Sequence record: PV730302.1
Strand: one strand, 5' to 3'
DNA: 64,000 nucleotides
From: a phage
A model generated the notes under the pieces. That model had not been told where the DNA came from. It did no database searches and was given only the letters and a program-made list of their open reading frames with translations. Made by a program: the position numbers and the translations under genes. This document shows positions 8,117 to 32,425 of the stretch, piece after piece (within the stretch, counting starts at the first letter, position 1; the number at the start of each line of letters is the position of its first letter).

Positions 8117-8123
8117 AATATCC

Positions 8124-8494: not shown

Positions 8495-8497
8495 TGT

Positions 8498-8554: not shown

Positions 8555-8556
8555 AC

Positions 8557-11268
8557 TTAAAAGTCGAACATGTCAAATAATGTTGCTTTTTTCTCGTAGT
8601 CGATTTTAGCAGACTCGGTAAAACCGGTCAGAGGTTTGATAAAGGTCTTTTGGAACAGTACGTTGTAGTCCATCCAACGGAGGACTTGGTCACGAATCTG
8701 AACCGGAAGTTCAATACCTGACGGCCATGCCATACAAGCTTCACCAAACGGGTTGCCTTCTTTAAGTGGCAGTACATATACCTTTTCACCATCAACGATA
8801 CGAGGCATAGTCAAATCACCTGCAGAAGCACGCATGTAAGCTAAGCAACCTTTGATGTGGTATGGACATTTAGAACCCGGGAATCCACCTTCATTATATT
8901 TCTCGATGTTGTTAGCACTGGATACTGCTGCAATGCTTACATAGTTTAGTTCGTTAAATTCCTTATTAAACTGTTTGAAATATTCTTGCAAAGAGGCCTC
9001 GCCTTCCTGAAGCATACGACGGATACATTCTTTCAGAGCTTTCTGAACTGCTTTAGGTGTACTTGATTTCTGGGTTTCGAGACCCATGATTTTCAAGTGC
9101 GGTTCGGCATAACGAGTACCTTCCATGTCCCAAACGTTCAGTGCATAACGTTTCTTGCCTGTCCAGAATCCACCAAGACCTTTAGAACCAAGTGGAGGAC
9201 CTGCGATAGCTTCTCGGTCCATGAACATCAAGTGTTGTTTGTTGTTCATGTACTCGCACATCTCACGGAAGCCTGCATCAATAGCTGGTTCCATACGTTC
9301 ACGTGCAAATTTATCTAAGAAGTCGACCCAATGGTTAGTATCACGGAATTTATCTTCGCCTACTTTATTGATGATTGCATCTGCCTTAACATAAATGGAG
9401 TCAGTATCACCATAGAGCACGAACTTCTGATTTTCAGTCTTACACACGCTATTCAGATATTCGTTAACCTTACGTTCAATCCATTGGAGGGCCATTTGAC
9501 CAAACAGTGTGATTGCAGTTGCGTTCCTGAGGTCGTAATAACGGAACCATACGTTACCAAGTGCACCATAAAGGGAGTTGATAAGCAACTTACGGTTAAT
9601 CTGAGCAGTCATACCTGCAACTTCGGTACGTTCAGCTCTGAACAACATTTCTCTTAAAGAAGGTGCTGACAGCGTTTTAATCTTGGCTTTGATTTCGTCA
9701 GAGAAGTCAAAACGATAATCGATATCCAGTGGACTATCAGCCGAGAGATTAGGATTTTCTAATGCTTCTTTAATTAACTCACCATTACGTTGAGCTGCAA
9801 GCATATAACCTTTATGTTCTTTACGTTGTAAGAACACCTTAGTGATTTCTGTAGGAATCACACCATCGCGGTCTTTATAGTACATCATGCCGTTAGGAGA
9901 GCAACTGTAGACGTCGCTAGGACGCGGAGCTGTTCCGGCAATATATTCATGTATCGGTGCGTTAGCGAATGTCCCTGCGATGGTCTCTGGGCTTATATTC
10001 ACTTGTCGAATGATACTCGGGTACAGAGATGTAAGGTCGAAACTCATTACGTATTTGTAAGCGTTAGGAATCGGTTCCTTAACGAAAGCGCCAGGATAAG
10101 GTTGGACCACGTGCGAACGAGCTTGTGGAATTACCTTGCCTTGCTCTTTAAGGCTATTAAAGATAATAGCGTCCCAAGTCTTAATTGGACTAAACACCGA
10201 CTGAATCTGCATCTTAGCATAATAACCCATGTCCAAACTCAGAAGAATGAACTGGCGTTTCATATCAATCTGCACTACACGATATACGTCGATAATGTTA
10301 TAGGAAATATATCGTTGGTGGTTCGTCTCACGTAACTTGGAGATTGGACCATCGTATTTCAACTTACCTACTTTCAATTCATATTCAGAAACATAATCCA
10401 GAGAATAAGAAGGCTGGTTGGTGAAGCTGAATTTTTTATAGAGGTCGATATAATCCAGAACAGAGATGCCGAACAAAGTAATGATTTCACGAGCACCGTA
10501 CATGTTCTCGATAACTTTAACACGAGTTTTACGATGTGGGCTTAATCGCTTAGCAGTGTTCTCACCGAACAGATTTTTCAGACGGTTATAAACGTACGGC
10601 ACGTCAAATGATTCAACGTTCCATCCAGTCAAAATCACAGGAGTTTTCTGTTGCCAGAAATTCAAGTACTCAAGCATCATTTCTTCTTCAGAATTAAATG
10701 GAAGATAAACGATTTTGTCAATGATTTCCTGTGGAACTTCGTCACCACCTTCGTCTTGGAGTTTCTCAGCGATTTTAATCGACCACTCTTCAACAGTACC
10801 ATAAGGCGAAACTAAAAGGTCGAATACATAGAATTTATCGTCAATCGAGTCGTAGTGGGTAATGGCATCGATAGGATGTTTAGCCTGAGCTGGTTCAGGG
10901 AATCCATCAGGAGATGTTACCTCGATGTCGAAGTTAGCAATACGAATCTTAGAAGAATCATATTTGATTTCTTTACGATAGGTATCAGACAAATAGGCTA
11001 ATTTATAGTCGTCCATACCCAGGGCTTCGAGGCCCATATCATCCATACGTTTCATCCATTGGGATGCATCACGCATAGAGTCGAATTCTTTCTTAACACA
11101 ACCCTTACCATAGATATCAATGTATTTTACGGCTTGCTCTGGATTAGCATGCATAAACATTGTAGGCTTGTATGGAACTTCACGACTACGTTCGTTACCA
11201 TTTTTATCGATGTAACGTTCGAGAATATTATCACCGATTTGTTCGACTGTCAAATAGAATTCTTGCAT
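8557..11268 (-). CDS. 43: DNA polymerase gp43 (family B)
   Basis: Near-colinear with recalled T4 and especially RB69 gp43; start taken at in-frame ATG 11268 (MQEFYLTVEQ, matching T4 MKEFYISIET) with AGGAAA SD, not the longer track ORF to 11328. Confidence 0.96.
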   Translation of the reverse strand: MQEFYLTVEQIGDNILERYIDKNGNERSREVPYKPTMFMHANPEQAVKYIDIYGKGCVKKEFDSMRDASQWMKRMDDMGLEALGMDDYKLAYLSDTYRKEIKYDSSKIRIANFDIEVTSPDGFPEPAQAKHPIDAITHYDSIDDKFYVFDLLVSPYGTVEEWSIKIAEKLQDEGGDEVPQEIIDKIVYLPFNSEEEMMLEYLNFWQQKTPVILTGWNVESFDVPYVYNRLKNLFGENTAKRLSPHRKTRVKVIENMYGAREIITLFGISVLDYIDLYKKFSFTNQPSYSLDYVSEYELKVGKLKYDGPISKLRETNHQRYISYNIIDVYRVVQIDMKRQFILLSLDMGYYAKMQIQSVFSPIKTWDAIIFNSLKEQGKVIPQARSHVVQPYPGAFVKEPIPNAYKYVMSFDLTSLYPSIIRQVNISPETIAGTFANAPIHEYIAGTAPRPSDVYSCSPNGMMYYKDRDGVIPTEITKVFLQRKEHKGYMLAAQRNGELIKEALENPNLSADSPLDIDYRFDFSDEIKAKIKTLSAPSLREMLFRAERTEVAGMTAQINRKLLINSLYGALGNVWFRYYDLRNATAITLFGQMALQWIERKVNEYLNSVCKTENQKFVLYGDTDSIYVKADAIINKVGEDKFRDTNHWVDFLDKFARERMEPAIDAGFREMCEYMNNKQHLMFMDREAIAGPPLGSKGLGGFWTGKKRYALNVWDMEGTRYAEPHLKIMGLETQKSSTPKAVQKALKECIRRMLQEGEASLQEYFKQFNKEFNELNYVSIAAVSSANNIEKYNEGGFPGSKCPYHIKGCLAYMRASAGDLTMPRIVDGEKVYVLPLKEGNPFGEACMAWPSGIELPVQIRDQVLRWMDYNVLFQKTFIKPLTGFTESAKIDYEKKATLFDMFDF

Positions 11269-11321
11269 TTCATTTCCTTTATAGACGAGTGATTGTCTTT
11301 TGTTTGTTGATGAATTATTAT

Positions 11322-11348
11322 ACTCCAAAAAGGGACCGAAGTCCCTTT
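11322..11348 (-). terminator. terminator-like hairpin upstream of gene 43
   Basis: AAAGGGAC-TTCG-GTCCCTTT followed by a 4-nt T-run on the minus strand. Confidence 0.45.
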
Positions 11349-14758: not shown

Positions 14759-15172
14759 TTAAGCAATAACGATCATTTGTTTACGAATGGATTCAGGCAG
14801 AGATTCAATATACTCTGGAATCTGGGAAGCAACAATAGCACCGGCTTCAAGCAACTGTTCGTCAAAATCTACGCAATAATCATCTTCGAGACGTTCAGAA
14901 CCATCACGGTCGATAACCAGTTTAGCACCTGCGGCCAGCGAATCGTTATAATGACGACGCATGATTTCTACCCACTTATCAGATACGTCGTTATCAATGA
15001 TACCGTAGAGCATGAACTTAGTTTCTTGTGGAAGAGACTGCAGACGACGTGCAGAGTTGGTATCAATATTCAGTACCCATGATTTACGAATACGATTTTG
15101 ATTGTGCGGGTTGGAATCGGTACGAATGGTTTTAACTTGGATATCTTTAACAGTAATAGCGTTAGCAAACAT
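14759..15172 (-). CDS. rpbA: RNA polymerase-binding protein RpbA-like
   Basis: Synteny next to gene 45; start taken at ATG 15172 (MFANAITVKD); track start is TTG. Confidence 0.5.
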   Translation of the reverse strand: MFANAITVKDIQVKTIRTDSNPHNQNRIRKSWVLNIDTNSARRLQSLPQETKFMLYGIIDNDVSDKWVEIMRRHYNDSLAAGAKLVIDRDGSERLEDDYCVDFDEQLLEAGAIVASQIPEYIESLPESIRKQMIVIA

Positions 15173-15234
15173 AATATTTTCTCTCATTTGGTTGGTAGAT
15201 GTATTATAAATCAATATTTTAAAGCACTTAACGT

Positions 15235-15426
15235 TTAATCAAAGTATTCATAAACGAACCAGGCAGGGTTCCTGTTCGACATGATTTTATCATACTCTGA
15301 CGTAAAAGCATTTCGGAGATAATCTTCAGTAACAAGGTGTTCGTCACCGGAGAAGTTGTTAACTAAAACATATCTCTTTATTTCCGGAGCGGCCAACAAA
15401 TGCTGGCCTGTTATAAAATCACTCAT
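15235..15426 (-). CDS. hypothetical protein (63 aa; T4 45.2 position)
   Basis: Small ORF abutting gene 46. Confidence 0.45.
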   Translation of the reverse strand: MSDFITGQHLLAAPEIKRYVLVNNFSGDEHLVTEDYLRNAFTSEYDKIMSNRNPAWFVYEYFD

Positions 15427-17105
15427 TCCAACACCGTGAATCGTCCAACTTTCTTCATTTGAAGATGTTGGCCATATGCTTGTGGGTCATGGTCTCGGTG
15501 AGAGATAATGAACACGTTCGTATCCTCAAGGCTATTCAAGATGGTTGCAATGGTCTTAACGCCTTCAGCGTCAGTAGCACTGTCAAATACCTCATCAAGA
15601 ATTAACGTGCTGATATTAACACCTGATACCTTAGAAGCAATATCACGCCATGTAAAAAGTAGTGCGATATCAATACGTGCTTTCTCACCCTGTGAAAATG
15701 AAGCATAACTAAAGTCTTCACGTCCACGTGATTTAATCGTCTCATTGAATTCTTCGTCTAGGGTAAAGACGTAGTCGGCTTCCATAATCTTCAAATAAGA
15801 ATTTATCTGCTTATTAAAGATAGGAATGTATTTCTTAATAATGGAACCTTTAATACCTGTATCCTTCAACATTTCTGTCAGAATTCCACGATGGTATTTT
15901 TCCATTACCAAGGACGATTTGGTAGAGACGATTTTATCAAGCTCTGCTTGAAGCGCGGCAATCTCTTCGGCATTACTTACGAACTCAGCAGCGGCTTGGT
16001 CGATTAATACTTTAACCTTTTTAGCTTTCTCTACAGCAGTAATGGCTTGTTGCTTATGAGTAGCTATCTGAGATTTAATAGCCAGCGCTTTATTACGTTG
16101 TTCGGTTACTTGGTCCTTAATGAGCTTGAGTTCTTGGTACTGCTCATTAATCTTATCCAAAGATTTTTGAAGCTCAAAGTTCTTATCCTTAATTTTAGTA
16201 AGGATATTTCCATGCTCTTCCAGTCCTTGCATACATGTAGGACAACTACCACCGGTTTCGTATAATTTCACGACCTTAGTAAAGGTTGCCATATCATTCT
16301 TGATTGCAAATCCTTTATTGCTCAGGTCACTCATAGAGTTGCTAGGGTCATCGTCGACAATGACATTGAGTAATTCATCAGTTAGTTTTTCTATATGGCC
16401 CTTCGCAGTCCTGGCTTCTTTAACGAGCTCGTCATACATTACTTGTAGTCTTGCTGCGTTCTCGCCGGATAATTTACGTTGTCGTTCTTCGTTGTCATTA
16501 TAAATTTTAATCTGTTGGGTAATAGAATCCTGCTTAACGTCTATTACTTGGATTTGGCTATTAGTCTCGCGAATCAAAGATTTGTTCAACTTATCCATAT
16601 CCGCTAATACAGAAACCTCTAAGAGGTCTTCCACCAGCTTTCGACGCGCTGGGGTCGACAAACCCATGAAAGGGGTATACCCTGCTGTACCAAGTACGAC
16701 AATCTGTTTGAAGCTTGCATAGGACATTCCGATAAGCTGTTCAAATTCTGCTTGGAAGTCTTTACTGCTGGCAGATTCATCAAGACGTTCACCGCCACAA
16801 GAGATTTCAAAAACGTTCGGTTTTTGCCCACGTTTGATGTAGTATTCTTTGCCATCATATTCCATCCACAGTTCGACCAAAAGGTCTTTCTTGTTACTTG
16901 AATTAATCAACTGCCCTTTCTTAACATCGCGAAAAGGCTTACCAAACAGAGCAAATGTTACGGCTTCAAGGAATGTTGATTTCCCTGCACCATTTTTACC
17001 GGTGACTAAGGTCTTTTGGACCTTGTCGAGTTGGATTGTAATAGGCTGTTGGCCTACTGACATGATATTTTTATACGTTACTTTCTTTAACTTAAAAGTC
17101 TTCAT
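15423..17105 (-). CDS. 46: recombination endonuclease subunit gp46 (SbcC/Rad50-like ATPase)
   Basis: 560 aa; Walker A GKNGAGKST, coiled-coil middle, CPTC zinc hook, signature/D-loop region; ATG overlaps the upstream stop (ATGA). Confidence 0.93.
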   Translation of the reverse strand: MKTFKLKKVTYKNIMSVGQQPITIQLDKVQKTLVTGKNGAGKSTFLEAVTFALFGKPFRDVKKGQLINSSNKKDLLVELWMEYDGKEYYIKRGQKPNVFEISCGGERLDESASSKDFQAEFEQLIGMSYASFKQIVVLGTAGYTPFMGLSTPARRKLVEDLLEVSVLADMDKLNKSLIRETNSQIQVIDVKQDSITQQIKIYNDNEERQRKLSGENAARLQVMYDELVKEARTAKGHIEKLTDELLNVIVDDDPSNSMSDLSNKGFAIKNDMATFTKVVKLYETGGSCPTCMQGLEEHGNILTKIKDKNFELQKSLDKINEQYQELKLIKDQVTEQRNKALAIKSQIATHKQQAITAVEKAKKVKVLIDQAAAEFVSNAEEIAALQAELDKIVSTKSSLVMEKYHRGILTEMLKDTGIKGSIIKKYIPIFNKQINSYLKIMEADYVFTLDEEFNETIKSRGREDFSYASFSQGEKARIDIALLFTWRDIASKVSGVNISTLILDEVFDSATDAEGVKTIATILNSLEDTNVFIISHRDHDPQAYGQHLQMKKVGRFTVLE

Positions 17106-17326
17106 GTATTGTTCTCACGAATTGTTTGTTCAGCATATTCTAGCATTTCTTCGGAAGAAGCAAACACGTCGTCAAGTTCCATGGCCCATGAAACACCTTC
17201 AGAATATTCAGAAGTGACATACATAGTTCCGGTATACCAAGAACCATCCACGTCCCATTCTACATTACCGAACCAGCCATCGCCAATATGAAAATCATGT
17301 TTATACATTTTCATCATTATAAGCAT
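17102..17326 (-). CDS. hypothetical protein (74 aa; 46.1 position)
   Basis: Small acidic ORF coupled to gene 46 start. Confidence 0.45.
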   Translation of the reverse strand: MLIMMKMYKHDFHIGDGWFGNVEWDVDGSWYTGTMYVTSEYSEGVSWAMELDDVFASSEEMLEYAEQTIRENNT

Positions 17327-17564
17327 CCTTGATGCATGATTCAGCCATATGAATTAATGTTTCTGGAGTATCATCTACCATTACATTAAAGCTAAATTCC
17401 ACAGCCCAATCAGTAGCAACATAAACTTTAATAAGCTCGTTGGTATCGCGAGTGCTCACGGCTTCAAACCAGAACTTAATGATATTCGTTTGGTTATCGT
17501 CATCAATAACTGTACAGTCATGCTCCAGTTCAAGTCCTGATTTTTTGAATTCATCTAAAGTCAT
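17301..17564 (-). CDS. hypothetical protein (87 aa; 46.2 position)
   Basis: Small acidic ORF between 47 and 46. Confidence 0.45.
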   Translation of the reverse strand: MTLDEFKKSGLELEHDCTVIDDDNQTNIIKFWFEAVSTRDTNELIKVYVATDWAVEFSFNVMVDDTPETLIHMAESCIKDAYNDENV

Positions 17565-18583
17565 CGTGTAACCTCATTATAAAGTTGTGCGGCCATAGTC
17601 TTAAGGGCTTTAACATCGTCTTCAGTGTGGCCATCAGGGAGGGCATCGATATAATCATACATCATATCCAAGAGGGACTTAACTTCATCTTCCTCTTCAG
17701 AATCATCGATATCAACACTGTTATCTACCTTAGACACAATACGCAAAGAGTGGACAACCTTTTCAAGCTCTGATTCGAACTTGGTAAGGCCATCATCGAT
17801 TTTATCGACTATAACACGAACCGCAATATTTGTAAAATCTTTGTAATCGATAGTCGCGTTAGGATAATGAATCTTACGGTGCCAACAGGTTTCATTGATG
17901 ACAAAATCCATCTTATGAGTTTCTGTATCGAAAATCCAGAAGCCACGAGGGTCGTTCTCATCACCCGCAGTTAGGGTCCATGGCGTACCAATATACTTAA
18001 CGTTTGCCGCATCAGAAATGGTGTGGAAGTGGCCAGACCATACTTGCTTATACTTCTTAAGGAAATCAGGTTCTAAACCATGTGATTTCATTCCTTTATA
18101 GAAATAGAAACCATTTAATTCCCAGTGGCCAATACAGAAATCTGCTGTAGTATTTTTGATATGGTCCATGATATCGGTTGTGTTTTCTTCACACATCCAT
18201 GGAATCAAATCAATTTCTGTACCATCAAAATTAACCGTAGTAGGTTTCTCAATAACCTTGATATGGTCGTATTTACCCAGAACTTCAGAAGCAGCGTTCG
18301 GTGTCAAGGTATTTTTGTAGTGTGCATCATGGTTACCAACAACAGTATACATGGTAATGCCATTTTCTTTAAGCAAATCTGAAATATGTCTGGCAAATTC
18401 CATGCACTTATGAGTAATTGCTTTACGAACATCAAAAATATCACCATACTGAATCCAGACAGTGATACCATTTGCTTTAGAATAATTGATGGCGTCTTTA
18501 ATGCCTGCCAATTGAATATTTTGCACCCAAGGGTCGTCGTTCTTCACTCCAAGGTGCCAGTCACCTGTGTTTAATATTTTCAT
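17561..18583 (-). CDS. 47: recombination endonuclease subunit gp47 (SbcD/Mre11-like phosphoesterase)
   Basis: Start at ATG 18583 (MKILNTGDWHLG) matching the T4 gp47 N-terminus; metallophosphoesterase motifs GDIFD and GNHD. Confidence 0.93.
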   Translation of the reverse strand: MKILNTGDWHLGVKNDDPWVQNIQLAGIKDAINYSKANGITVWIQYGDIFDVRKAITHKCMEFARHISDLLKENGITMYTVVGNHDAHYKNTLTPNAASEVLGKYDHIKVIEKPTTVNFDGTEIDLIPWMCEENTTDIMDHIKNTTADFCIGHWELNGFYFYKGMKSHGLEPDFLKKYKQVWSGHFHTISDAANVKYIGTPWTLTAGDENDPRGFWIFDTETHKMDFVINETCWHRKIHYPNATIDYKDFTNIAVRVIVDKIDDGLTKFESELEKVVHSLRIVSKVDNSVDIDDSEEEDEVKSLLDMMYDYIDALPDGHTEDDVKALKTMAAQLYNEVTR

Positions 18584-18723
18584 AAGCCAAGCGCCGTTAT
18601 TGCAATGCAAAATAAAATTATTGAAATGAACCCGTCAGGAGTGGAAAAGAATCCTATCCAACAGGCTCGTGTGAATGTGTAGAATGCCATGAATAACACG
18701 ACATATCCTAAAAGTAGTTCCAT
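18580..18723 (-). CDS. small hydrophobic peptide (47 aa), putative
   Basis: ATG 18723 with GAGGAG SD 6 nt upstream; stop overlaps the gene 47 ATG (ATGA); translation MELLLGYVVLFMAFYTFTRACWIGFFSTPDGFISIILFCIAITALGL. Confidence 0.4.
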   Translation of the reverse strand: MELLLGYVVLFMAFYTFTRACWIGFFSTPDGFISIILFCIAITALGL

Positions 18724-18764
18724 ATGTTCTCCTCAGTTGGTTCATTTTATCATCCGAATATAAA

Positions 18765-18790
18765 GCAAAAAAGGAGCCTAAGCTCCTTTA
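18765..18790 (-). terminator. rho-independent terminator
   Basis: AAGGAGC-TTAG-GCTCCTT followed by T6 on the minus strand. Confidence 0.6.
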
Positions 18791-19009
18791 CCAACTAATA
18801 CACCGTACAGAGGTTCGTGATTAGACCTGAACTTGATAGGCTTATAGGTAATAGTACCTTCATTTTCTGCTTTAATACGAGCGGCTTCAAATTGAAGTAT
18901 CATCTCATTTTTGTCAGATTTAATCTTATCAAAATCCATCGAATTCGTCATTCATATAACCTCTTAAACTTTTTCGTATTCGTCATTCATTAGCCTGCAG
19001 TCCATGTTA

Positions 19010-19210
19010 TCATCTCTGCCACCACTTCTTAAGTTGATGAGAATCTACCCAAACCTTGGCTACGGGCTCAATCTGAAAAATACCATCAGAATATTGGCCC
19101 ATCATTTTGTATTCGGTTTCAGACTGCTTAATACAGATATTACCGTATGAGCGAAGTCTAAAGGCGGCTCCAATAAGAAGCCGTTTAAAGGGTTTATTTA
19201 CGAGAGCCAT
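19010..19210 (-). CDS. hypothetical protein (66 aa)
   Basis: ATG 19210 with GGGAAA-type SD. Confidence 0.35.
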   Translation of the reverse strand: MALVNKPFKRLLIGAAFRLRSYGNICIKQSETEYKMMGQYSDGIFQIEPVAKVWVDSHQLKKWWQR

Positions 19211-19505
19211 TGACGATTTCCCAAATTTGTTTGCGGGTAGATTCCCACATCAATTGAACAAGTTCATCAGTAACAGGTTGACGGTAAATACCGCGTAATT
19301 TAATTAAAGCGTACTTATATGCTTCAAAGTTGTTTTCAAGTACAGCGCCTTGGGCATGGAGATTTAAACGACGGATTTCACGAGCATTCTTCTTAAGAAT
19401 CTTAGCCGCTTGAGAATTAGCTTCTTTAATATTGTGCTCTTCTAAACGTTGCTGGGCTTCTTCAATTTGCTCATCGGTCAATTGAGAAATGTCATGGCTT
19501 TGCAT
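19194..19505 (-). CDS. hypothetical protein (103 aa)
   Basis: ORF immediately downstream of the gene 55 region. Confidence 0.5.
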   Translation of the reverse strand: MQSHDISQLTDEQIEEAQQRLEEHNIKEANSQAAKILKKNAREIRRLNLHAQGAVLENNFEAYKYALIKLRGIYRQPVTDELVQLMWESTRKQIWEIVNGSRK

Positions 19506-19506
19506 A

Positions 19507-19737
19507 TTAATCCTTTGGAGTCAATTCAATAGTGAAGTAGAAATTAGCGTTCTCAACATGATAACGATAATCTACGTTATTATCAGGAGAAGTGAATTCA
19601 ATATTCCTGACGTTAAGTGGGTCAATATCAATAGGAAGGCCTTTAACATCCCGTAATATCAATTTAATAAAATAAGGGAGTGCTTCGAAGTCTTCCATTC
19701 CATCTAAAAGTGGAGTGATATTAATCTGATGTTCCAT
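19507..19737 (-). CDS. hypothetical protein (start uncertain)
   Basis: ORF overlapping the gene 55 3' end; first ATG at 19737, track start is GTG; weak SD. Confidence 0.3.
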
Positions 19738-20278
19738 ATAAAAAATCCAATTCACCAACTTTAGGTTCGGCACTCTTATCAGACCCTGGTGCTTTAGTTA
19801 AAGAGGTTTCATACTGAGTCATTTTGTCGTAGATATCTTGGATAAAGGTTTCATCTGCAATACCTACCATATCGTCATCATTACTGTCATAGACATTATG
19901 GACGAAGTAGCTATATTTCTTTGCCATTTCTTTACGTTCTTTTTTGATACGCTGAACGAAGGCATTAAAACAAGCCATAGTGATATATGCATGTGGGTTG
20001 TCGTATTTTGTTTCGTCGAAATTGTGAAGACCTTTAATCGAAGCTTCGATTCCATCAGCAATCATTTCTTGCTTCCAGGATTGGGTATACCCTGAGAAGT
20101 TGAAACGTTTACTTAGTCCTTCAGCAATGAGCATAATAGCCAAGCCAATAACGTCGTTCTGGCGAACTATTTTATTAGGATCGGTATTTTCTCTGAGCTC
20201 TGTTTTCCATTGGGTAATAGCTTTCAGAAGCTCCTTATTATTTACATAGTTATTTTTAGTCAGTTTAATTTCGGTCAT
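19721..20278 (-). CDS. 55: late-transcription sigma factor gp55
   Basis: 185 aa, near-identical over long stretches to recalled T4 gp55 (NYVNNKELL..., [54 protein letters not shown]). Confidence 0.93.
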
Positions 20279-20344
20279 TGTTACCTCAGATAACTCAAAT
20301 CATAGGTCTATTATATCATGGTATTTGAAGACCCGTTTAAAGCA

Positions 20345-20608
20345 TCAACGGAGTAAGCAATAAGCCTGAAATACTGTTTCAAGGATTTTTTTGAACTCTT
20401 CAAAGGAAGGAGCTCCTTCAAACCCTTGGCTTTGAATGTAAAGACAGAATTGTTGGTAAAGGACCAAATATTCTGATTGGTTATATTTGGAAATATGAGA
20501 CTTCCATACTTCAGAAGTCTCTCCACAAATAAACTCAACATTCATATAACTATCTATTAAGAAAATTCCCAGTCCTTCGTACGCGAGGGTAGTGGATACA
20601 GGGGTCAT
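20345..20608 (-). CDS. hypothetical protein (87 aa)
   Basis: ORF in early-gene block. Confidence 0.45.
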   Translation of the reverse strand: MTPVSTTLAYEGLGIFLIDSYMNVEFICGETSEVWKSHISKYNQSEYLVLYQQFCLYIQSQGFEGAPSFEEFKKILETVFQAYCLLR

Positions 20609-20871
20609 TGTAGGAATCGAGCTCCTTCTAGTGCGTCATCAAGATTATCAAACTCATCGATATAATCAACACCGCCAACTTCGTCCTTCGCATAAAGCCA
20701 ATACTGTTTAAATTCGTATTCGATGATAAAGTGGTCGCCTTCAATTTGAAGAGTCCCATCACCGTTAAATTGAACTGCATAACCTGTAAAGCGGACATCA
20801 TTCAAGAGTTCTTCTTTCATAGCAATCATTTCCAAGTTTTTATCATAATTAGAGAGTTTTATTTTAATCAT
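20605..20871 (-). CDS. hypothetical protein (88 aa)
   Basis: ORF with overlapping stop/start. Confidence 0.45.
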   Translation of the reverse strand: MIKIKLSNYDKNLEMIAMKEELLNDVRFTGYAVQFNGDGTLQIEGDHFIIEYEFKQYWLYAKDEVGGVDYIDEFDNLDDALEGARFLQ

Positions 20872-21197
20872 TTCGCTGCCTTAACAATTTTCAGGTCAAC
20901 GAATTTTTTCTTACGTTGGTTTTTCATGCGGCGGATAGTTTTATCCGTAATTTCACCTGGGCACCAAGCTTTGGATTCAACACCAAAGGCAGCGACATCG
21001 AATTCATCAAGGATATATTGAACCAGGATTTCACGAATACCGTTCTTACCAATTTTCTGGTCTTTAGAGTGCATGATTGGCAGCAGTTCAGCAACCCATT
21101 GGTCAAGAATTTCAGGAGTCACAAAACCGGTATTCATCAGTTCGTTTACTTTATCGAAAGCGAAAGAGTTCAGTACGTTTTTAATAGCTTGTGACAT
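20868..21197 (-). CDS. hypothetical protein (109 aa)
   Basis: Start at ATG 21197 with GAGGAAA SD directly downstream of a promoter; track N-terminal extension rejected. Confidence 0.5.
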   Translation of the reverse strand: MSQAIKNVLNSFAFDKVNELMNTGFVTPEILDQWVAELLPIMHSKDQKIGKNGIREILVQYILDEFDVAAFGVESKAWCPGEITDKTIRRMKNQRKKKFVDLKIVKAAK

Positions 21198-21266
21198 AAT
21201 AATTTCCTCAGTTTTAAAGTTATAATCCGTGGGACCATTATACTCTGGTCCCAAGAGTTTGTAAAC
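21198..21266 (-). promoter_or_regulatory. early promoter, sigma70-like (TTTACA-17-TATAAT)
   Basis: Minus-strand GTTTACAAACTCTTGGGACCAGAGTATAATGG. Confidence 0.6.
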
Positions 21267-21466
21267 TATTTTTGACTCATTGCACCTTTCCAGCCTTCGT
21301 ACATAGATGCAGCTGAAATTAATAAAGCGCCTGAACAACTTGAATATTTGTGATTCCAAAACCAGTTCAGAAAAACTTCGTCATCAATACCTTGGGCTAT
21401 CATATTTTCAAAGAACTGACGACGAGCTTCAGCAATTCGCTGTGATAATTTAGATTCAGGATTCAT
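21266..21466 (-). CDS. hypothetical protein (66 aa)
   Basis: ORF ending at the promoter. Confidence 0.4.
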   Translation of the reverse strand: MNPESKLSQRIAEARRQFFENMIAQGIDDEVFLNWFWNHKYSSCSGALLISAASMYEGWKGAMSQK

Positions 21467-21598
21467 TTAAATTTTCCAGTTTCCGTGTTTATCAATGAAT
21501 TTAATCCAGTCATTTACTGACCACGTGGTTGTATCGCCCTTTGGACTAACATTTAAAGTGTATAGTCCTTGCTTAAAAAGCATTCGTTTGATATTCAT
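21467..21598 (-). CDS. hypothetical small protein (43 aa)
   Basis: ATG 21598 with GAGGAAAA SD overlapping the upstream stop. Confidence 0.35.
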   Translation of the reverse strand: MNIKRMLFKQGLYTLNVSPKGDTTTWSVNDWIKFIDKHGNWKI

Positions 21599-21605
21599 AT
21601 TTTCC

Positions 21606-21899
21606 TCAGCTATAACGATAACATTCGTTTGATTTACGTTTTGCAACTTGATGAGAAGTATTGTAATCAGGTTCATCGTCGTTGTAAACATCTTTTTTCA
21701 GCTTTCTCACTTCTTTACGAAGCTGGCGGTTCATTTCATTCTTAACTTCAGAATCAACGCCTCTCATACGTTTCCACTTGTCAGAACGGAAGATATTTTC
21801 TTCAACCAAATCCTGACTTACGCCTTCCGGTGCTTTACGACGTCCGGAATAATAAAAATCTTTTACAGACAATTCTTTACGACGAATAGTTTTACCCAT
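21606..21899 (-). CDS. hypothetical basic protein (97 aa)
   Basis: Lys/Arg-rich ORF. Confidence 0.45.
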   Translation of the reverse strand: MGKTIRRKELSVKDFYYSGRRKAPEGVSQDLVEENIFRSDKWKRMRGVDSEVKNEMNRQLRKEVRKLKKDVYNDDEPDYNTSHQVAKRKSNECYRYS

Positions 21900-21901
21900 A
21901 G

Positions 21902-22156
21902 TTACCTCAGCAGTTTGTATCCAATAAGATTTTTAATGTACTGGATATCTTTGATATCCAAATCCAACTTAATATCTTTCAGACGGTCGCACAGGGTCAA
22001 AAAAGTTACATGTTTCCAATTCTTCACTGGGCAACAATAAGTCTTAGGACCATTTGCAATTTCAATATTCTTATCAGTGACGGTGAGAAAAATCAGGCGC
22101 TCATCATCAAGATTAAGGGTGACGACATTTTTCATTGAATGTAATTTCAGACTCAT
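21902..22156 (-). CDS. hypothetical protein (84 aa)
   Basis: ORF. Confidence 0.45.
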   Translation of the reverse strand: MSLKLHSMKNVVTLNLDDERLIFLTVTDKNIEIANGPKTYCCPVKNWKHVTFLTLCDRLKDIKLDLDIKDIQYIKNLIGYKLLR

Positions 22157-22335
22157 GATTTAATTTCCTTTGCTACTGAACAAAATAAAGAACGGTCGCA
22201 CACCATCAATGGGGCATCAGGGTGAGTCAAAGGTTGATACCATACATCGAGATTTGTTACCTTTGTTACTTGAACAGGGTAGCCATTTACTGAATAATAC
22301 TGGTCGACTTTAATTTCTTTATCTTGGATAGTCAT
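22153..22335 (-). CDS. hypothetical protein (60 aa)
   Basis: ORF directly downstream of an early promoter; SD GAGGAG. Confidence 0.45.
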   Translation of the reverse strand: MTIQDKEIKVDQYYSVNGYPVQVTKVTNLDVWYQPLTHPDAPLMVCDRSLFCSVAKEIKS

Positions 22336-22393
22336 AATGTTCTCCTCATGTGTTGATAGGATAGACTATAACACGTGAGGAGAGGAAGTAAAC
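22336..22393 (-). promoter_or_regulatory. early promoter with SD-complementary spacer arm
   Basis: GTTTAC-TTCCTCTCCTCACGTGT-TATAGT; spacer CTCCTCACGTGT is complementary to leader ACACATGAGGAG. Confidence 0.55.
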
Positions 22394-22394
22394 A

Positions 22395-22712
22395 CTAATC
22401 TTCAATTAAATCTCGGTCATAACCAAGTTCAATCAAAAGCGATTTGAAGGCAGGAATATTTTCTATTTTCTTATTATCGACAAATATGACAGGATAGCGT
22501 ATCGCTAAGCTCTTGAAGCCTGCACGTTTGGCCAATGATACTATAAGAGGCTTGTCATATACTGCGCCTGTCGGCGTCTGATTAATCACAGGATAGAAAG
22601 TATGTGGGATAGAAAGGGAATTTAGGAGCGATAGAACAGCAATGCACCCTGGACAGCGCATGACTGTCTCAGGGATGCCGTAGATTTCGATTTTAGTTAA
22701 CTTTTGGTCCAC
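22395..22712 (-). CDS. glutaredoxin-like protein (NrdH/Grx fold)
   Basis: CPGC active-site motif, cis-Pro YPVIF motif, C-terminal GY; 105 aa. Confidence 0.6.
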   Translation of the reverse strand: MDQKLTKIEIYGIPETVMRCPGCIAVLSLLNSLSIPHTFYPVINQTPTGAVYDKPLIVSLAKRAGFKSLAIRYPVIFVDNKKIENIPAFKSLLIELGYDRDLIED

Positions 22713-22989
22713 AGGAAATAACTCCTTGGTAGTCCCAGGTTTTTAGAACTTCGTCCTCATTAGTTCCATACGGGACGTAAATCTGTACAAGGAAACCTGT
22801 GTCATCAAAAGAGAAATACACGGTAGGTTTAATACCATGAACCTCTGATAGAGCATAGATGTCTTTAAGGTCTTCTTCCTTACCTTTAAAGAATTCCGGG
22901 TTCAGGTCGCAGTCATGGAAGTACCAATCATCACCGAACTTGTCCCAAGCGGTCCAATTCAAAGCTACATACTCTTCAAAACGTTTCAT
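22693..22989 (-). CDS. hypothetical protein (98 aa)
   Basis: ORF. Confidence 0.45.
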   Translation of the reverse strand: MKRFEEYVALNWTAWDKFGDDWYFHDCDLNPEFFKGKEEDLKDIYALSEVHGIKPTVYFSFDDTGFLVQIYVPYGTNEDEVLKTWDYQGVISCGPKVN

Positions 22990-23201
22990 TCTTTCACCTT
23001 CATCATTTTAGAAATAACACTATGAACAGACTGGATTCGTTTTTCGAACTCAGACGCTTCAAGACCTTTTTCAGTACTCAGGGCGCCAATAATCACAAAC
23101 AGCAATCCAAACGGGATGACCAGGATTAAAAGGCACATGATAAACAGGGCAAATGTAATATTGGCCAGGATATCAGAAACAGCATTACGAAATTTGTTCA
23201 T
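22986..23201 (-). CDS. small membrane protein (71 aa)
   Basis: Start at ATG 23201 (MNKFRN); one long hydrophobic helix. Confidence 0.45.
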   Translation of the reverse strand: MNKFRNAVSDILANITFALFIMCLLILVIPFGLLFVIIGALSTEKGLEASEFEKRIQSVHSVISKMMKVKE

Positions 23202-23326
23202 TAAAGAACCCACATGTTAGTTACAACAAATAACCATTGAGCAGGATACTCAACACCCATAATACGAACCGCATCGTTCAGAGATTCGGCTAAAGCATAA
23301 AATGTGTAGCCATAAAAATTAATCAT
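23201..23326 (-). CDS. small peptide (41 aa), putative
   Basis: ATG overlaps the gene 49 stop (ATGA) and its stop overlaps the next ATG (TAATG). Confidence 0.3.
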   Translation of the reverse strand: MINFYGYTFYALAESLNDAVRIMGVEYPAQWLFVVTNMWVL

Positions 23327-23796
23327 TTAAGCGATTTCCTCAGTTGTTTTTTGAATGAATCCACCATTTGTTTCTTAGTGGCAGATTCATTATAAGTCAT
23401 TCCGTGTGAAAGCATTTCAGCAATCATTTCTTCCTTACCCAACCTGCTGAACTCTTTGGTTTTATCAGGAACGAAATTAGGATGAATATTGTTTTCAGTA
23501 TAATCAGCTTTCAGATAGACCAGCAAATTCTCTAACCATTCGAGGTAGTCAACGTTTTGACCTTTAAGACCAGAACGGTTGAACTTATGCTTCATTTGTC
23601 CTTCTGCAGCATTGCACAGGTTACATAGTAAACCACGAACCTTACCGGCTTTTGGCCCGTTTAACTCGTGGTCGTGGTCAAGGTGGTTACTTTGAACATC
23701 AGGGTTTAATTCACGTTTACAAATCAAACACTTACCACATTGTGCATCATAAAGTTTTTGTTTTTCTTCTTTGTATAATTTGCCGGTCAACAACAT
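23323..23796 (-). CDS. 49: endonuclease VII (Holliday-junction resolvase) gp49
   Basis: 157 aa, about 85-90 percent identical to recalled T4 gp49 including the zinc-binding CxxC motifs and HLDHDHELNGPKAGKVRGLLCNLCN. Confidence 0.95.
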   Translation of the reverse strand: MLLTGKLYKEEKQKLYDAQCGKCLICKRELNPDVQSNHLDHDHELNGPKAGKVRGLLCNLCNAAEGQMKHKFNRSGLKGQNVDYLEWLENLLVYLKADYTENNIHPNFVPDKTKEFSRLGKEEMIAEMLSHGMTYNESATKKQMVDSFKKQLRKSLK

Positions 23797-23801
23797 AATA
23801 A

Positions 23802-23833
23802 ACCCTTACCATTATTAGATAAGGGTATTTATT
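23802..23833 (-). promoter_or_regulatory. gene 49 translational-control hairpin (SD sequestered) with late-promoter-like AATAAATA
   Basis: Minus-strand ACCCTTA-TCTAATAATGG-TAAGGGT, perfect 7-bp stem, 3' arm containing the SD AAGGG 5 nt from the ATG; AATAAATA (7/8 of TATAAATA) just upstream. Confidence 0.5.
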
Positions 23834-23925
23834 AATATCCTAATAGTTTAGCAGTGCAACTTAGCACTAACAACAATCCGAATAAAACAACTCCTACCCA
23901 AAATACCGTAATAAGAGCCTCCATA

Positions 23926-24102
23926 TCAGACCCCATAGAATGAACGATGCAAACGTTTAAATTGACGAATCATCTTTTTAGTAGGACGGGTGTATAATCC
24001 TACACAAGTGGCCATAAACTGGTCAGTTGGACTTCCTTTGATAAGAAGTTTCCAGACCTTACCGCCATTTAATTTTTCGGTATAGACTAATACAGTTTTC
24101 AT
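23926..24102 (-). CDS. small hypothetical protein (58 aa)
   Basis: ATG 24102 overlaps the upstream stop (ATGA). Confidence 0.35.
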   Translation of the reverse strand: MKTVLVYTEKLNGGKVWKLLIKGSPTDQFMATCVGLYTRPTKKMIRQFKRLHRSFYGV

Positions 24103-24401
24103 GCGACCTCAAATTCATTATCATCGTTGGTCCAAAAACACCAGAATGAAGCTTTAGTATCTTCAAACATTTCTTTAGTGTATTCGTATACCTTACCATT
24201 GAATTCGATAGCAGTTACGCCGATGATTTCAGGGTCGCCCCATGGAGACATTTCCACCTTAAGGATTTTAACTTCAGCGCCTTCACAGAGCTCACCTGAC
24301 TCAAAACCACGATTACCATTTAATTCAGGCCAGTCAACATAATGGTCGACATCTTCTTCAGTAATACGAACAGTTTTACCTTCAAATTCAAATAAATTCA
24401 T
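24099..24401 (-). CDS. hypothetical acidic protein (100 aa)
   Basis: ORF. Confidence 0.5.
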   Translation of the reverse strand: MNLFEFEGKTVRITEEDVDHYVDWPELNGNRGFESGELCEGAEVKILKVEMSPWGDPEIIGVTAIEFNGKVYEYTKEMFEDTKASFWCFWTNDDNEFEVA

Positions 24402-24574
24402 CAGAACGCCTTATCAGCAAAGCGAAGTTGAGCTTCAAGCCAATGAATATAATCGGCTGCAGATTTAATCAAATCGGATTCTAGGTCAGGTAAAGAACCC
24501 GAATCCGACAATTCATAAAGTGAATGTTCAATCAGACGGCCTTTATGACGGCCAACTTCAATTTTGGTACTCAT
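24401..24574 (-). CDS. small hypothetical protein (57 aa)
   Basis: ATG 24574 with GGAG SD 9 nt upstream; stop overlaps the next ATG; below track size cutoff. Confidence 0.4.
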   Translation of the reverse strand: MSTKIEVGRHKGRLIEHSLYELSDSGSLPDLESDLIKSAADYIHWLEAQLRFADKAF

Positions 24575-24690
24575 ATCCAAACTCCATATCGATTAATTCA
24601 TTGTTTGAAGGTTCATTATACTCTATTTCGGAATCGTTGTAAACCGGTTCCTCTGGCTCGGTAGTTTCCCACCGAGCGACATACCATGGC

Positions 24691-24999
24691 TTAACGGTCA
24701 CACCACCAACTACTTACTTCAAAATCAGGTTCACCGTGTTCCCAGTACCAAGGGCCGACTGGATGCCAATCGCCATGTTCATCTTCTTCAAATTCTTCAG
24801 ATTCAAGCCCAACGTATTGCCATTGAACTTCATAAGCGGTGCCACCGATTACAACGGTGTTCTCGCCATACGGATGAGCTACAACAAAGTCAATACCTTC
24901 TGCTTTGGCTAACCAAACCATATATTCGTATAGTTTATATTCCAGGTCATCTTCGGTGCCATCACCTAGAAAAATGGTTTGTTCGTTTAATTCAATCAT
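24691..24999 (-). CDS. hypothetical acidic Trp-rich protein (102 aa)
   Basis: ORF. Confidence 0.45.
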   Translation of the reverse strand: MIELNEQTIFLGDGTEDDLEYKLYEYMVWLAKAEGIDFVVAHPYGENTVVIGGTAYEVQWQYVGLESEEFEEDEHGDWHPVGPWYWEHGEPDFEVSSWWCDR

Positions 25000-25184
25000 A
25001 ACTCCACCATAAATTCAAATAGCTGGTCACGTACACAGGTATCAGTCCAACCCCATTCGTTGGCTTCTTCTTTTAACCAATCCGGGAGATTTGCCAATAC
25101 GGTTTCTTTACTAGGCGCAGGAGTATTAAACTCACTTGCAAACTCTCTTGCGCAGGTTTCATAAGCTGTATCAAATTCGGTCAT
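24996..25184 (-). CDS. hypothetical protein (62 aa)
   Basis: ORF. Confidence 0.4.
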   Translation of the reverse strand: MTEFDTAYETCAREFASEFNTPAPSKETVLANLPDWLKEEANEWGWTDTCVRDQLFEFMVEL

Positions 25185-25338
25185 TTAAAGTTCCAGAATG
25201 AAGCACCAACCAGAAATAAAGGCCAACAAATCATAGACGTCAGCCACCAACAAAAATCACCGGAATCATCTAATTTAGCTAGGGTCTTAGCATAACCAAT
25301 ACCGATGATAAGATACAAAACAACCAACATTAATTCAA

Positions 25339-25602
25339 TCATTTGAAATACGCTCGCAGTTGGTCAAAGCCACCAATAGAAGTTCCGTCCGGAGCAAATA
25401 CCTGAGGCATAGTCAAACCTACCTGAGATTCACGTCCAAGAGCAGCCAGGAGTTCAGCAATCTTCTCATCATCAAACACACCTTTTTCCGGCATAACGTT
25501 AATGAATTCGTAAGGTTGTTTCTTAACGTCAAGCAGTCGTTTGGCGTTATCACAGAAAACACAACGGTGAATATTTGAATCGTAACCATAAACTTTAAAC
25601 AT
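25339..25602 (-). CDS. nrdC: thioredoxin NrdC
   Basis: 87 aa; MFKVYGYDSNIHRCVFCDNAKRLL near-identical to recalled T4 NrdC. Confidence 0.92.
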   Translation of the reverse strand: MFKVYGYDSNIHRCVFCDNAKRLLDVKKQPYEFINVMPEKGVFDDEKIAELLAALGRESQVGLTMPQVFAPDGTSIGGFDQLRAYFK

Positions 25603-25603
25603 T

Positions 25604-25840
25604 TTAAATTCCTAATATTTGTTTGAATGCTTCAGAACGGTCAAGTTCTGTTCCATATTTTTCCATATGCTCATATTTTAAATCATACACATCAGATAGT
25701 ATATTATTATACGAGCGAGTTAAAGCAGATTTCAATACTGAATAACTGTCCGGGAATTTACCATGCTCTTTATAATAAGCTACGGTGAGTTCGCGGACTG
25801 CCTTATCGGCAGCCTCTACATATTCTTTACGCTTTGCCAT
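25604..25840 (-). CDS. hypothetical protein (78 aa)
   Basis: Start at ATG 25840 overlapping the upstream gene end; weak SD. Confidence 0.35.
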
Positions 25841-26138
25841 TTTCGTCTCGCTCAAATTTGTGTTTACAATGGCGGCATTTGTAACGAAGATTACTAGTCT
25901 GCCAATGGACCAATTGAACCTGTTCTGTACCACACTCAGGACAGTTTGGTACATTCTTAGAAGCTTGTTCTCGTCGTGCGACCATAGCCATTACAGCATC
26001 CCAATTAACGGCATCACTATATTCATCACAGCCATGAATTTTACCAACCAATTCAACTTCAACATCCTCGGCTTTAATAAATTTCAATAAACCGGTATTG
26101 GTTGTTGAAGCAATATCTTCAGCTAAACGTTGTTTCAT
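25827..26138 (-). CDS. zinc-ribbon protein (103 aa)
   Basis: CPECG...C..C four-cysteine motif. Confidence 0.5.
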
Positions 26139-27145
26139 TTCAACAGCTCCAGAGCTTGTTCAAGACGGTCTAAACGATTGGTAGACTCTTCCCAAAGTTT
26201 CTTGGCAGCAGTATATTGCCCAGTCAGTTTTTTGTTAATAGCAAGGGCATCTTTATACGCTTTTTCTAAGGCAACGACTTCTGGTAACTTGGATTTAGTA
26301 ATTGGTGTAGGGGCCATGATAGGGTTGTTCAAGTCGTTAATCAAGTCTTCTAATGTAGCAGGCTCTTTATCAGTGTTCACAATTTCCTCACATTTTTCTT
26401 GGTAAATTTCAGCATCAGTTTTTGGAACAGGGCATTTGATTTCACGGACTGTTACTAAGACCTCGTATCCTTTCCAACCATAGAAATGTTTAACTTCTTG
26501 AGTCTCGTATTTCTCTACGGTATCCATCAGAGCTAAAGCTTGTTCGATAGTATTCAAGGTGTCGTAAGCAATATCTTGATACTTTACAACTTCCGCATCA
26601 TCTTTAGGTTTCCTATTAGGCGACCAAATAACAGAAATAATAGCTTTTCCTTTATAACTATTTGTTTTAATCATGCAATTAGCCATAGGGTGAATAGTAC
26701 GACAATCACCGGAAACTATAGTTTTAGAGGCCGCTTTGAGAATTAATGCAGAGTTAGCCTTGAATTCGCTAACCCAACGTTGCGGAAATAAACTACTAGG
26801 GTCCATACCTTTAATTTTGATATAACTTTTTATGGTATCACCAAACCATTTGTAGTTAACAACATGGCTGGAACCTGGATGTTTCTCTTTGCCAAACTCT
26901 GAAAGGATGTCCTTATTGACCAGTCGCGAAAGCAGTCGAGAACCTTTAAATGTTTTAATGATATCATGAATGCACAAACGGCCTGCAATCTTTTCGATTT
27001 CAGCTTTGAAACAGCGCGATAATGCATCATCAATTTGGTCGACCCATTTATTGATATTAGAAACTATTACCACATATGGGGTTAATGGAGGGGTGTTGGC
27101 AGTGATATACGTAGTAAAGGCATTAATGTATTCAGTACGAGTCAT
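26135..27145 (-). CDS. hypothetical protein (336 aa)
   Basis: ATG 27145 directly downstream of a TTTACA-18-TATAAT promoter. Confidence 0.6.
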   Translation of the reverse strand: MTRTEYINAFTTYITANTPPLTPYVVIVSNINKWVDQIDDALSRCFKAEIEKIAGRLCIHDIIKTFKGSRLLSRLVNKDILSEFGKEKHPGSSHVVNYKWFGDTIKSYIKIKGMDPSSLFPQRWVSEFKANSALILKAASKTIVSGDCRTIHPMANCMIKTNSYKGKAIISVIWSPNRKPKDDAEVVKYQDIAYDTLNTIEQALALMDTVEKYETQEVKHFYGWKGYEVLVTVREIKCPVPKTDAEIYQEKCEEIVNTDKEPATLEDLINDLNNPIMAPTPITKSKLPEVVALEKAYKDALAINKKLTGQYTAAKKLWEESTNRLDRLEQALELLK

Positions 27146-31414: not shown

Positions 31415-32425
31415 TTATCGATAATAAGAGTTGTGGTTGTCAAGGTATACCTCTTCGACGAACTTGTCCCGGAACTTCATGTCCACCTTATCAGGCATAC
31501 CGTTCTTGGCTGCCCAGATGGCATTGGTTTCGACTTCATCTACAATAGCTTCAAGTTCAGCCTGCACATCTTTAAAAGCATGTAATCCTTGTTTGATTTC
31601 AAGAATGAATGGAGCGGTACGTAAAGGGTATTTGAGATCGCCAGTTTGATAGATTTCCTTCAACTGGTATCCAGCACGATAAGCATGACTCAGCGCTTTC
31701 CAATCGATACCTTCATTGGCTTCAGCCTTACGAGCACGTTCACCATATTCAGCATCAAGCTTATTCAGAGATTGCTTGAGCTCGATTAAAGACAAAGTGG
31801 TTTGGTACTTACGTCCGAGAACAGTATAGAACGTTTGAGGACCTGTTTTCTCATGATTATGGAATACCCATTCACAGAACTCGTTTTCAGGGAGTCGATG
31901 TTTAATATCTTCTACCTTAGTACGACGTTGTTTAGTCGAACCATCTTCTTGGTAATCAATCCACTGTTCAGGAATCTGGTTGACTATTGCCAATACACCA
32001 CGCAGAGCAGCCAGACGAGAACCTTTAACACCATATTTAGAAGCTTGCTTACGGACGTACCCTAAATAGGCTTTCATGTTGGTTGTATAGAACCGAGAAC
32101 GATTGTCTTGGATAAATTTCCATACATCAGGTAAATCAGATTTAACCACCAGTTCAGGTGGAGTGTGGAGCATATCCAGAGCAACGGTTTCGCCTTCAGC
32201 CGCCAGTTTAAAGAAATATTTCAGGCTATAAAGCTCGTGGTCAACATCATCTTTAGTGTTTTTGGAAGCAGTGTTATTCGTATTCAGGTTGGTATGGTTC
32301 ATAGCCGTACCTAACAGAATATCACGCGGATGTGGAACAAAGATTTCTTTAAAATCAACATCAGATTCTGGAGTACTTGTTCCATAAAGGTGGCTACCGA
32401 AGTAGCCTTTCATAACTGTTCTCAT
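31415..32425 (-). CDS. Pol-beta-superfamily nucleotidyltransferase-like protein with long helical C-terminal domain
   Basis: GSHLYGTSTPESDVDF matches the GS-x(9-13)-DxD minimal-NTase motif; 336 aa; ATG overlaps the upstream stop (ATGA); SD GAGGA. Confidence 0.55.
   Translation of the reverse strand: MRTVMKGYFGSHLYGTSTPESDVDFKEIFVPHPRDILLGTAMNHTNLNTNNTASKNTKDDVDHELYSLKYFFKLAAEGETVALDMLHTPPELVVKSDLPDVWKFIQDNRSRFYTTNMKAYLGYVRKQASKYGVKGSRLAALRGVLAIVNQIPEQWIDYQEDGSTKQRRTKVEDIKHRLPENEFCEWVFHNHEKTGPQTFYTVLGRKYQTTLSLIELKQSLNKLDAEYGERARKAEANEGIDWKALSHAYRAGYQLKEIYQTGDLKYPLRTAPFILEIKQGLHAFKDVQAELEAIVDEVETNAIWAAKNGMPDKVDMKFRDKFVEEVYLDNHNSYYR

Follow-up and report, generated by a model that had tools for sequence, protein, structure and literature searches.

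Absence of the T4 α-gt and nrdD-nrdG cassettes between genes 47 and 49 of a Dhakavirus and a putative arabinosyl-5-hydroxycytosine system elsewhere in the same sequence

The closest known counterparts of the locus considered here are those of the T4-type coliphages T4, RB69, and JS98. The DNA of RB69 and DLP3 contains mono- and poly-arabinosylated 5-hydroxycytosine (Lee et al. 2026); the sugar on RB69 DNA is arabinose and not glucose (PMC13326640), as it is for the Mosigvirus NP (PMC13390438). RB69 gp48 makes 5-hydroxy-deoxycytidine monophosphate (5-hydroxy-dCMP) with oxygen derived from O2 (Lee et al. 2026; PMC13326640), the HY126 AfhE fusion and AfhF phosphatase make uridine diphosphate (UDP)-arabinose from arabinose 5-phosphate, and Dhakaviruses are among the lineages with a syntenic cluster (Lee et al. 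2026). The α-glucosyltransferase gene (α-gt) was reported from "T-even type phages only", with genes 42 and 56 and no glucosyltransferase genes in RB69 and JS98 (Petrov et al. 2010; PMC2993671), and a hidden Markov model survey assigned nrdB-nrdA (class I) to JS98 and IME08 and classes I and III to RB69 and T4 (Dwivedi et al. 2013; PMC3653736, supplement). The present analysis concerns positions 18584–23322, the exact stretch between genes 47 and 49, of a 64,000-nucleotide phage sequence (PV730302.1; the window), where synteny with T4 predicts α-gt and the anaerobic ribonucleotide reductase genes nrdD and nrdG.

The window is about one third (~35%) of the genome of a JS98-like T4-type coliphage, a Dhakavirus of the JS98/IME08/IME341 type (93–97% DNA identity). 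It is highly probable that its 47–49 segment is the backbone of T4 and RB69 minus two cassettes, α-gt (with mobB) and nrdD-nrdG (with mobC and an intron), and that the phage has a predicted arabinosyl-5-hydroxycytosine system instead, encoded 10–15 kb from this segment between uvsX and gene 43. A megablast comparison of window positions 15000–27000 with GenBank phages gave 49 records with a query coverage of 80% or more, with Dhakavirus IME341, C6, IME08, WG01, JS98, and others as the best relatives (91–95% identity). Positions 19270–80190 of the complete IME08 genome align to the window almost end to end at 89–97% identity, and the 64 kb compared, out of a genome of ~170 kb, show, over almost their whole length, the high nucleotide identity (91–97%) and collinearity with JS98, IME08, and IME341 expected of a Dhakavirus. 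No record identical to the window was found among the phage records compared, the closest being ~95% identical. Dhakavirus genomes (JS98, JS10, IME08, IME341, C6, WG01, QL01, KIT01) have the 47–49 gene order and junctions of the window at 91–97% DNA identity; they share its five-gene cluster between uvsX and gene 43 and are without α-gt, β-gt, nrdD, and nrdG.

The T4 proteins of the 47–49 region (NC_000866) were used as tblastn queries against the window. The backbone of T4 (a Tequatrovirus), comprising 47, 47.1, α-gt.2–α-gt.5, 55, 55.1–55.6, nrdH, 55.8, and 49, is present in the same order and orientation, with the small genes 47.1, α-gt.2–α-gt.5, 55.1–55.6, and 55.8 all on the minus strand; T4 has in addition α-gt and mobB, and nrdG, mobC, and nrdD with the I-TevII intron. 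Queries with T4 α-gt, β-gt, NrdG, both NrdD exons, mobB, and mobC gave nothing better than an expect value (E) of 0.019 in the 64 kb, and neither glucosyltransferase has a recognizable homolog there (best E of 0.019 for α-gt and 2.4 for β-gt). The weak α-gt match (36 residues, 5649–5756) falls within an unrelated HAD-phosphatase gene and was judged to be due to chance. The blastn breakpoints pair window position 18716 with position 16581 of the T4 locus (the start of 47.1) and window position 18759 with T4 position 18705 (just past α-gt.2); consequently, 42 nucleotides (18717–18758) replace the 2123 nucleotides of α-gt and mobB in T4. The syntenic positions of the two genes are occupied by a 42-nucleotide spacer (α-gt) and by a non-homologous 297-residue GT-B protein (β-gt). 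The largest open reading frames (ORFs) of the interval, gene 55 (185 residues) and 55.2 (163 residues from the earliest TTG), are too small for α-gt (400 residues) or NrdD (~605 residues), and a Pfam scan of ten other large window ORFs of unknown function revealed no glycosyltransferase or ribonucleotide reductase domain. An earlier note on this DNA, made from its letters and ORFs, had described only small ORFs and a terminator between 47 and 55 and had taken both glucosyltransferase genes to be missing; both points hold for the window, the small ORFs being 47.1 and α-gt.2–α-gt.5 and the terminator a hairpin motif.

The segment from 47 to 55 without α-gt was found in 69 phage records, among them Gapriverviruses (e.g., VR26 and VR20). 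RB69, a Mosigvirus, lacks α-gt at the same site, with 47 directly followed by α-gt.2; unlike the window it is also without 47.1, and it shares with the window the extra small genes ORF072c and ORF082c. Given that α-gt is restricted to T-even types, its acquisition by the T-even branch is no less likely than a loss in the present lineage.

At the IME08 positions corresponding to window 18583–18741 (~37234–37842), 47 and α-gt.2 are separated by ~600 nucleotides, compared with 158 in the window. The IME08 insert holds an unannotated ORF of ~195 residues with a GIY-YIG-like N terminus (…PPFYIGST…) that replaces 47.1, and a homing or HNH endonuclease is annotated between 47 and α-gt.2 in QL01, KIT01, and MX01. 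This insertion in place of 47.1, seen in IME08, QL01, KIT01, and MX01, is missing from the window. The endonuclease insertions of the relatives show that homing endonucleases land repeatedly at the site of T4 α-gt and mobB.

At the other end of the interval, the DNA alignments with T4 and with RB69 break off precisely at the gene 49 stop codon (23326), the point at which nrdD starts in both phages. Searches with T4 and RB69 queries found neither NrdD nor NrdG in the window, all frames of the interval lack a radical S-adenosylmethionine CX3CX2C motif, and the window lacks an RVCGY-type glycyl-radical motif; no class III reductase was therefore detected. Where RB69 has the order nrdH, ORF082c, 55.8, nrdG, nrdD, 49, the window has nrdH, an ORF082c-like gene, 55.8, a 41-residue ORF, and 49. 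The earlier note was right that nrdD and nrdG are missing here and miscounted the short ORFs, of which there are three (98, 75, and 41 residues) and not two. An uninterrupted junction from nrdH to 49 is present in 48 phage records; the neighbor of gene 49 in Tequatroviruses carries an anaerobic reductase annotation.

The ATG of the 41-residue ORF overlaps the gene 49 stop codon (ATGA), as does the start of nrdD in T4 and RB69. RB69 itself has, at ~24875–24985 on the minus strand, an unannotated 37-residue ORF (MIKLNYIMDTINDMIFHFGPEFYSQYSLVLINVWLIN). This ORF overlaps the stop codon of nrdG and is a full-length homolog of the window ORF; the T4 counterpart (T4 locus ~22330–22460) is split by a frameshift. 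The 125 nucleotides between 55.8 and 49 were inspected for relics of the reductase genes, but the 41-residue ORF located there is not such a remnant, being a member of phrog_3350 with this RB69 small-ORF homolog. An AA-ATGA-W-W-AA context is common to the RB69 49/nrdD and nrdG/small-ORF junctions, and the nrdD-nrdG cassette may have been removed by precise excision through recombination at this microhomology. Tequatrovirus, Mosigvirus, and several T4-type phages of Klebsiella and Enterobacter have nrdD and nrdG at this position, so that parsimony would favor their loss in the Dhakavirus/Gaprivervirus branch.

The absence of nrdD-nrdG is best read as an independent, clean cassette loss. It is separate from the absence of α-gt, because RB69 arabinosylates its DNA and lacks α-gt, yet keeps nrdG and nrdD at this site. 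The missing reductase genes, which the earlier note cited together with α-gt in favor of an alternative modification, are irrelevant to DNA modification. As nrdH is retained at 61% identity to T4, it evidently has a role apart from NrdDG. The phage keeps NrdC and NrdH and, judging from its relatives, also the aerobic NrdAB, encoded outside the window; when oxygen is absent, it would have to rely on the host NrdDG for its deoxynucleotides. In Dhakavirus Bp7 (4438–5509 of the Bp7 locus), gene 49 does not adjoin 55.8; the place is taken by a 271-residue hypothetical protein and a 35-residue ORF, neither of which is nrdD or nrdG.

The α-gt and nrdD-nrdG cassettes are dispensable in T4, and non-essential regions do get deleted in stocks, so deletions in a laboratory stock were considered as a cause of the absences, as were assembly artefacts of this one sequence. 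This explanation is refuted, to the point of having practically no weight, by the finding of the same junctions in the 48 and 69 independent phage records of GenBank, which span several countries and hosts; the junctions thus characterize the lineage. Moreover, they are fully coding and include a conserved small ORF. A second explanation, allowed for in the earlier note, is that the genes are present but have moved outside the window. The window matches only positions 19270–80190 of IME08, genomes of the T4 type have a mosaic structure, and even the best-matching record is ~95% identical and not fully so. To address this, the complete 172,253-nucleotide IME08 genome and the part of IME341 outside the window equivalent were searched by tblastn with T4 α-gt, β-gt, NrdG, and NrdD and RB69 NrdD and NrdG. 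The sole match at E ≤ 0.1 was the 36-residue chance match of α-gt in the HAD-phosphatase gene (E 0.045–0.074), and no meaningful glucosyltransferase, nrdD, or nrdG homolog was found in either relative. Only the aerobic nrdA and nrdB are annotated as reductase genes in IME08 and IME341. The class I assignment of JS98 and IME08 in the hidden Markov model survey and the lack of glucosyltransferase genes in the JS98 type (Petrov et al. 2010) point the same way, which makes relocation very improbable.

The predicted modification genes form a five-gene cluster (window 3405–7585) flanked by uvsX (2021–3202) and gene 43 (8557–11328), in the order transferase, synthase, kinase, phosphatase, fusion (Table 1). 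Their RB69 orthologs are gp46:47, gp48, gp45, gp51, and gp52:53, in a different order. The RB69 cluster (RB69 loci 4048–10599 and 2520–3620) has, in addition, gp49, gp50, gp55, and a distant gp3 adjoining rIIA, all lacking in the Dhakavirus version; no homolog of gp55 (arabinose-5-phosphate isomerase), gp50, or gp3 (second transferase) was found in the window, IME08, or IME341. The gp55 isomerase and the second transferase look accessory rather than core. Where T4 has β-gt and the folate-type dCMP hydroxymethylase gp42, the window has the GT-B protein and an enzyme of the 5-hydroxy-dCMP synthase type.

This 232-residue thymidylate-synthase (ThyA) homolog matched the HY126 structures 9iqu and 9iqc far better (E 1.5e-125) than T4 gp42 (1b49, E 4.7e-6). 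It keeps the catalytic Cys157 and also Asp188, the counterpart of the dCMP-specifying N177D change, and by its sequence and structure match it is a predicted 5-hydroxy-dCMP synthase. The 297-residue protein gave no match in a PDB sequence search or in Pfam and was identified as GT-B by fold comparison only, with confidence; the window thus holds the GT-B-fold candidate for the DNA arabinosyltransferase of an RB69/HY126-type system. Of the Afh pathway of E. coli phage HY126 (structures 9iqu, 9iqc, 9ir2, 9iqz), the AfhE-like fusion and AfhF-like phosphatase are also present. As counterparts of a bifunctional arabinose 5-phosphate kinase/uridylyltransferase (AfhE) and an arabinose 1,5-bisphosphate phosphatase (AfhF), they would together account for a UDP-arabinose supply. 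The suggestion of an alternative modification in the earlier note gains support from this RB69/HY126-type cluster in the T4 β-gt/gene 42 slot. Its further suggestion that the phage does not glucosylate its DNA stands as far as the T4-type glucosyltransferases are concerned, which are absent; a predicted DNA glycosyltransferase of a non-T4 type is nevertheless present.

Alternatively, the GT-B protein could be a diverged DNA glucosyltransferase acting on 5-hydroxycytosine or 5-hydroxymethylcytosine, with only T4-type sequences missing. This appears very unlikely, as the protein is 65–69% identical to RB69 gp46:47, and RB69 DNA has arabinose, not glucose; it is also clustered with orthologs of the HY126 enzymes that make UDP-arabinose from arabinose 5-phosphate. 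Furthermore, UDP-glucose needs no phage-encoded activation enzymes, and the keeping of these enzymes therefore argues for a sugar nucleotide that the host does not provide. Arabinosyl-5-hydroxycytosine, and not glucosyl-hydroxymethylcytosine, is most likely what the phage DNA contains. Several points weigh against this interpretation and the absences joined to it. The transferase activity of RB69 gp46:47 is only predicted in Lee et al.; a literature search found no nucleoside analysis of any Dhakavirus, the sugar being deduced from RB69 and HY126 orthology; the cluster is without homologs of RB69 gp55, gp50, and gp3, so its product may differ from the RB69 mixture; and genome-wide absence is read from relatives ~95% identical, not from the full genome of this phage.

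In the proposed pathway, the flavin/O2-dependent thymidylate-synthase homolog would produce 5-hydroxy-dCMP, which kinases would convert to the triphosphate for incorporation into DNA. The sugar-kinase/uridylyltransferase fusion and the HAD phosphatase would generate UDP-arabinofuranose from arabinose 5-phosphate, and the GT-B transferase would then place arabinose on 5-hydroxycytosine in DNA. Escherichia coli supplies arabinose 5-phosphate through KdsD/GutQ, and these host enzymes could provide the sugar phosphate. The single transferase suggests mono-arabinosylation.

Older comparative tables list a "gene 42 allele" for JS98-type phages (Petrov et al. 2010, Table 4); its identity is only 25–28% to T4 gp42 and 79% to the RB69 5-hydroxy-dCMP synthase. 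Dhakavirus records that label it a dCMP hydroxymethylase or a thymidylate synthase are probably misannotated, and "gene 42" of these phages would be better named 5-hydroxy-dCMP synthase. Apart from such annotation, the finding has little significance. A cytosine expected to be arabinosylated rather than glucosylated bears on the sensitivity to type IV restriction, CRISPR, and sequencing chemistry where such phages are used in therapy.

Every element described here is already documented for this phage group (Petrov et al. 2010; Dwivedi et al. 2013; Lee et al. 2026), which makes the finding an ordinary one. One idea may have some novelty. As the oxygen used by the synthase comes from O2 (PMC13326640), no modified cytosine would be made without oxygen, and selection on a phage anaerobic reductase could thereby be relaxed, leading to loss of nrdD-nrdG in the Dhakavirus/Gaprivervirus lineage. 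Support for this link is weak because RB69 keeps both. The idea is improbable, together with a second and smaller one, that mono-arabinosyl-5-hydroxycytosine alone is made and from host arabinose 5-phosphate; if correct, the first would offer a view of how gut-derived phages replicate in low oxygen.

Table 1. Positions of the modification cluster and of the genes and other features from 47 to 49 in the window.
Feature	Position	Strand	tblastn match	Evidence
GT-B glycosyltransferase, 297 residues, RB69 gp46:47 ortholog (putative arabinosyltransferase 1)	3405–4298	minus		65–69% identity; slot of T4 β-gt
Thymidylate-synthase homolog, 5-hydroxy-dCMP synthase type	4295–4993	minus		79% identity to RB69 gp48; 25–28% to T4 gp42; Pfam PF00303
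P-loop nucleotide kinase, RB69 gp45-like	4990–5526	minus		37% identity, E 5e-31
HAD-type phosphatase, RB69 gp51/HY126 AfhF-like	5523–5897	minus		62% identity to RB69 gp51, E 2e-55
Nucleotidyltransferase and sugar-kinase fusion, RB69 gp52:53/HY126 AfhE-like	5882–7585	minus		41–43% identity to RB69 gp52, gp53; Pfam NTP_transferase, APH
Gene 47, SbcD-like recombination nuclease subunit (left landmark)	17561–18583	minus	17564–18583	70% amino acid identity to T4 gp47, 341 residues, E 6e-162
47.1, small membrane protein, 47 residues	18580–18723	minus	18583–18717	78% identity to T4 gp47.1; phrog_6693
42-nucleotide spacer at the place of T4 α-gt and mobB	18717–18758	none		blastn breakpoints
Terminator-like hairpin, end of α-gt.2	18770–18789	minus		motif match only
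α-gt.2, α-gt.3, α-gt.4, α-gt.5 (57, 66, 103, ~72–88 residues)	18778–19773	minus	18790–18948; 19016–19204; 19206–19493; 19525–19737	41–57% identity to T4 proteins, E 1e-14 to 1e-20
Gene 55, late sigma factor	19721–20278	minus	19724–20278	79% identity to T4 gp55
RB69 ORF072c-like (DUF7200), 55.1, 55.2, 55.3, 55.4, 55.5, DUF7290 ORF, 55.6	20311–22335	minus	20608–22335 (55.1–55.6)	tblastn, Pfam, IME08/IME341 annotation
nrdH, glutaredoxin-like, kept	22395–22712	minus	22398–22703	61% identity to T4 NrdH, E 1e-37
98-residue ORF, RB69 ORF082c homolog	22693–22989	minus		48% identity, E 1e-28; phrog_2749
55.8, predicted membrane protein, 75 residues	22986–23213	minus	23025–23201	42% identity to T4 gp55.8; phrog_1930
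41-residue ORF in place of nrdD-(mobC)-nrdG	23201–23326	minus		phrog_3350, E 1e-22
Gene 49, endonuclease VII (right landmark)	23323–23796	minus	23326–23796	87% identity to T4 gp49

The window has a GC content of 0.35–0.42 throughout, and nearly all of its genes up to ~57 kb are carried by the minus strand. All small ORFs of the 47–49 stretch match PHROG families of unknown function, with α-gt.2, α-gt.3, α-gt.4, and α-gt.5 corresponding to phrog_2140, phrog_1648, phrog_951, and phrog_1169, respectively. The hairpin at the end of α-gt.2 (18789–18770) reads AAAGGAGC-TTAG-GCTCCTTT followed by a T run, giving an 8-bp stem with four GC pairs, a 4-nucleotide loop, and a T-rich tail.

Between the modification cluster and imm lies a 166-residue ORF (7616–8116, minus strand) with a lipoprotein-type signal start (MKKLIIAMSMLLSGC). 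It belongs to phrog_1754 (unknown function), has no homolog in the RB69 cluster, and sits where RB69 has the arabinose-5-phosphate isomerase. Further along the window, a 336-residue NrdC.11-like protein (31415–32425, minus strand) matched the Pfam family RlaP (E 1e-10), the RNA repair pathway DNA polymerase beta family nucleotidyltransferase family, and its NrdC.10-like neighbor gave weak matches to AAA/STAND NTPases.

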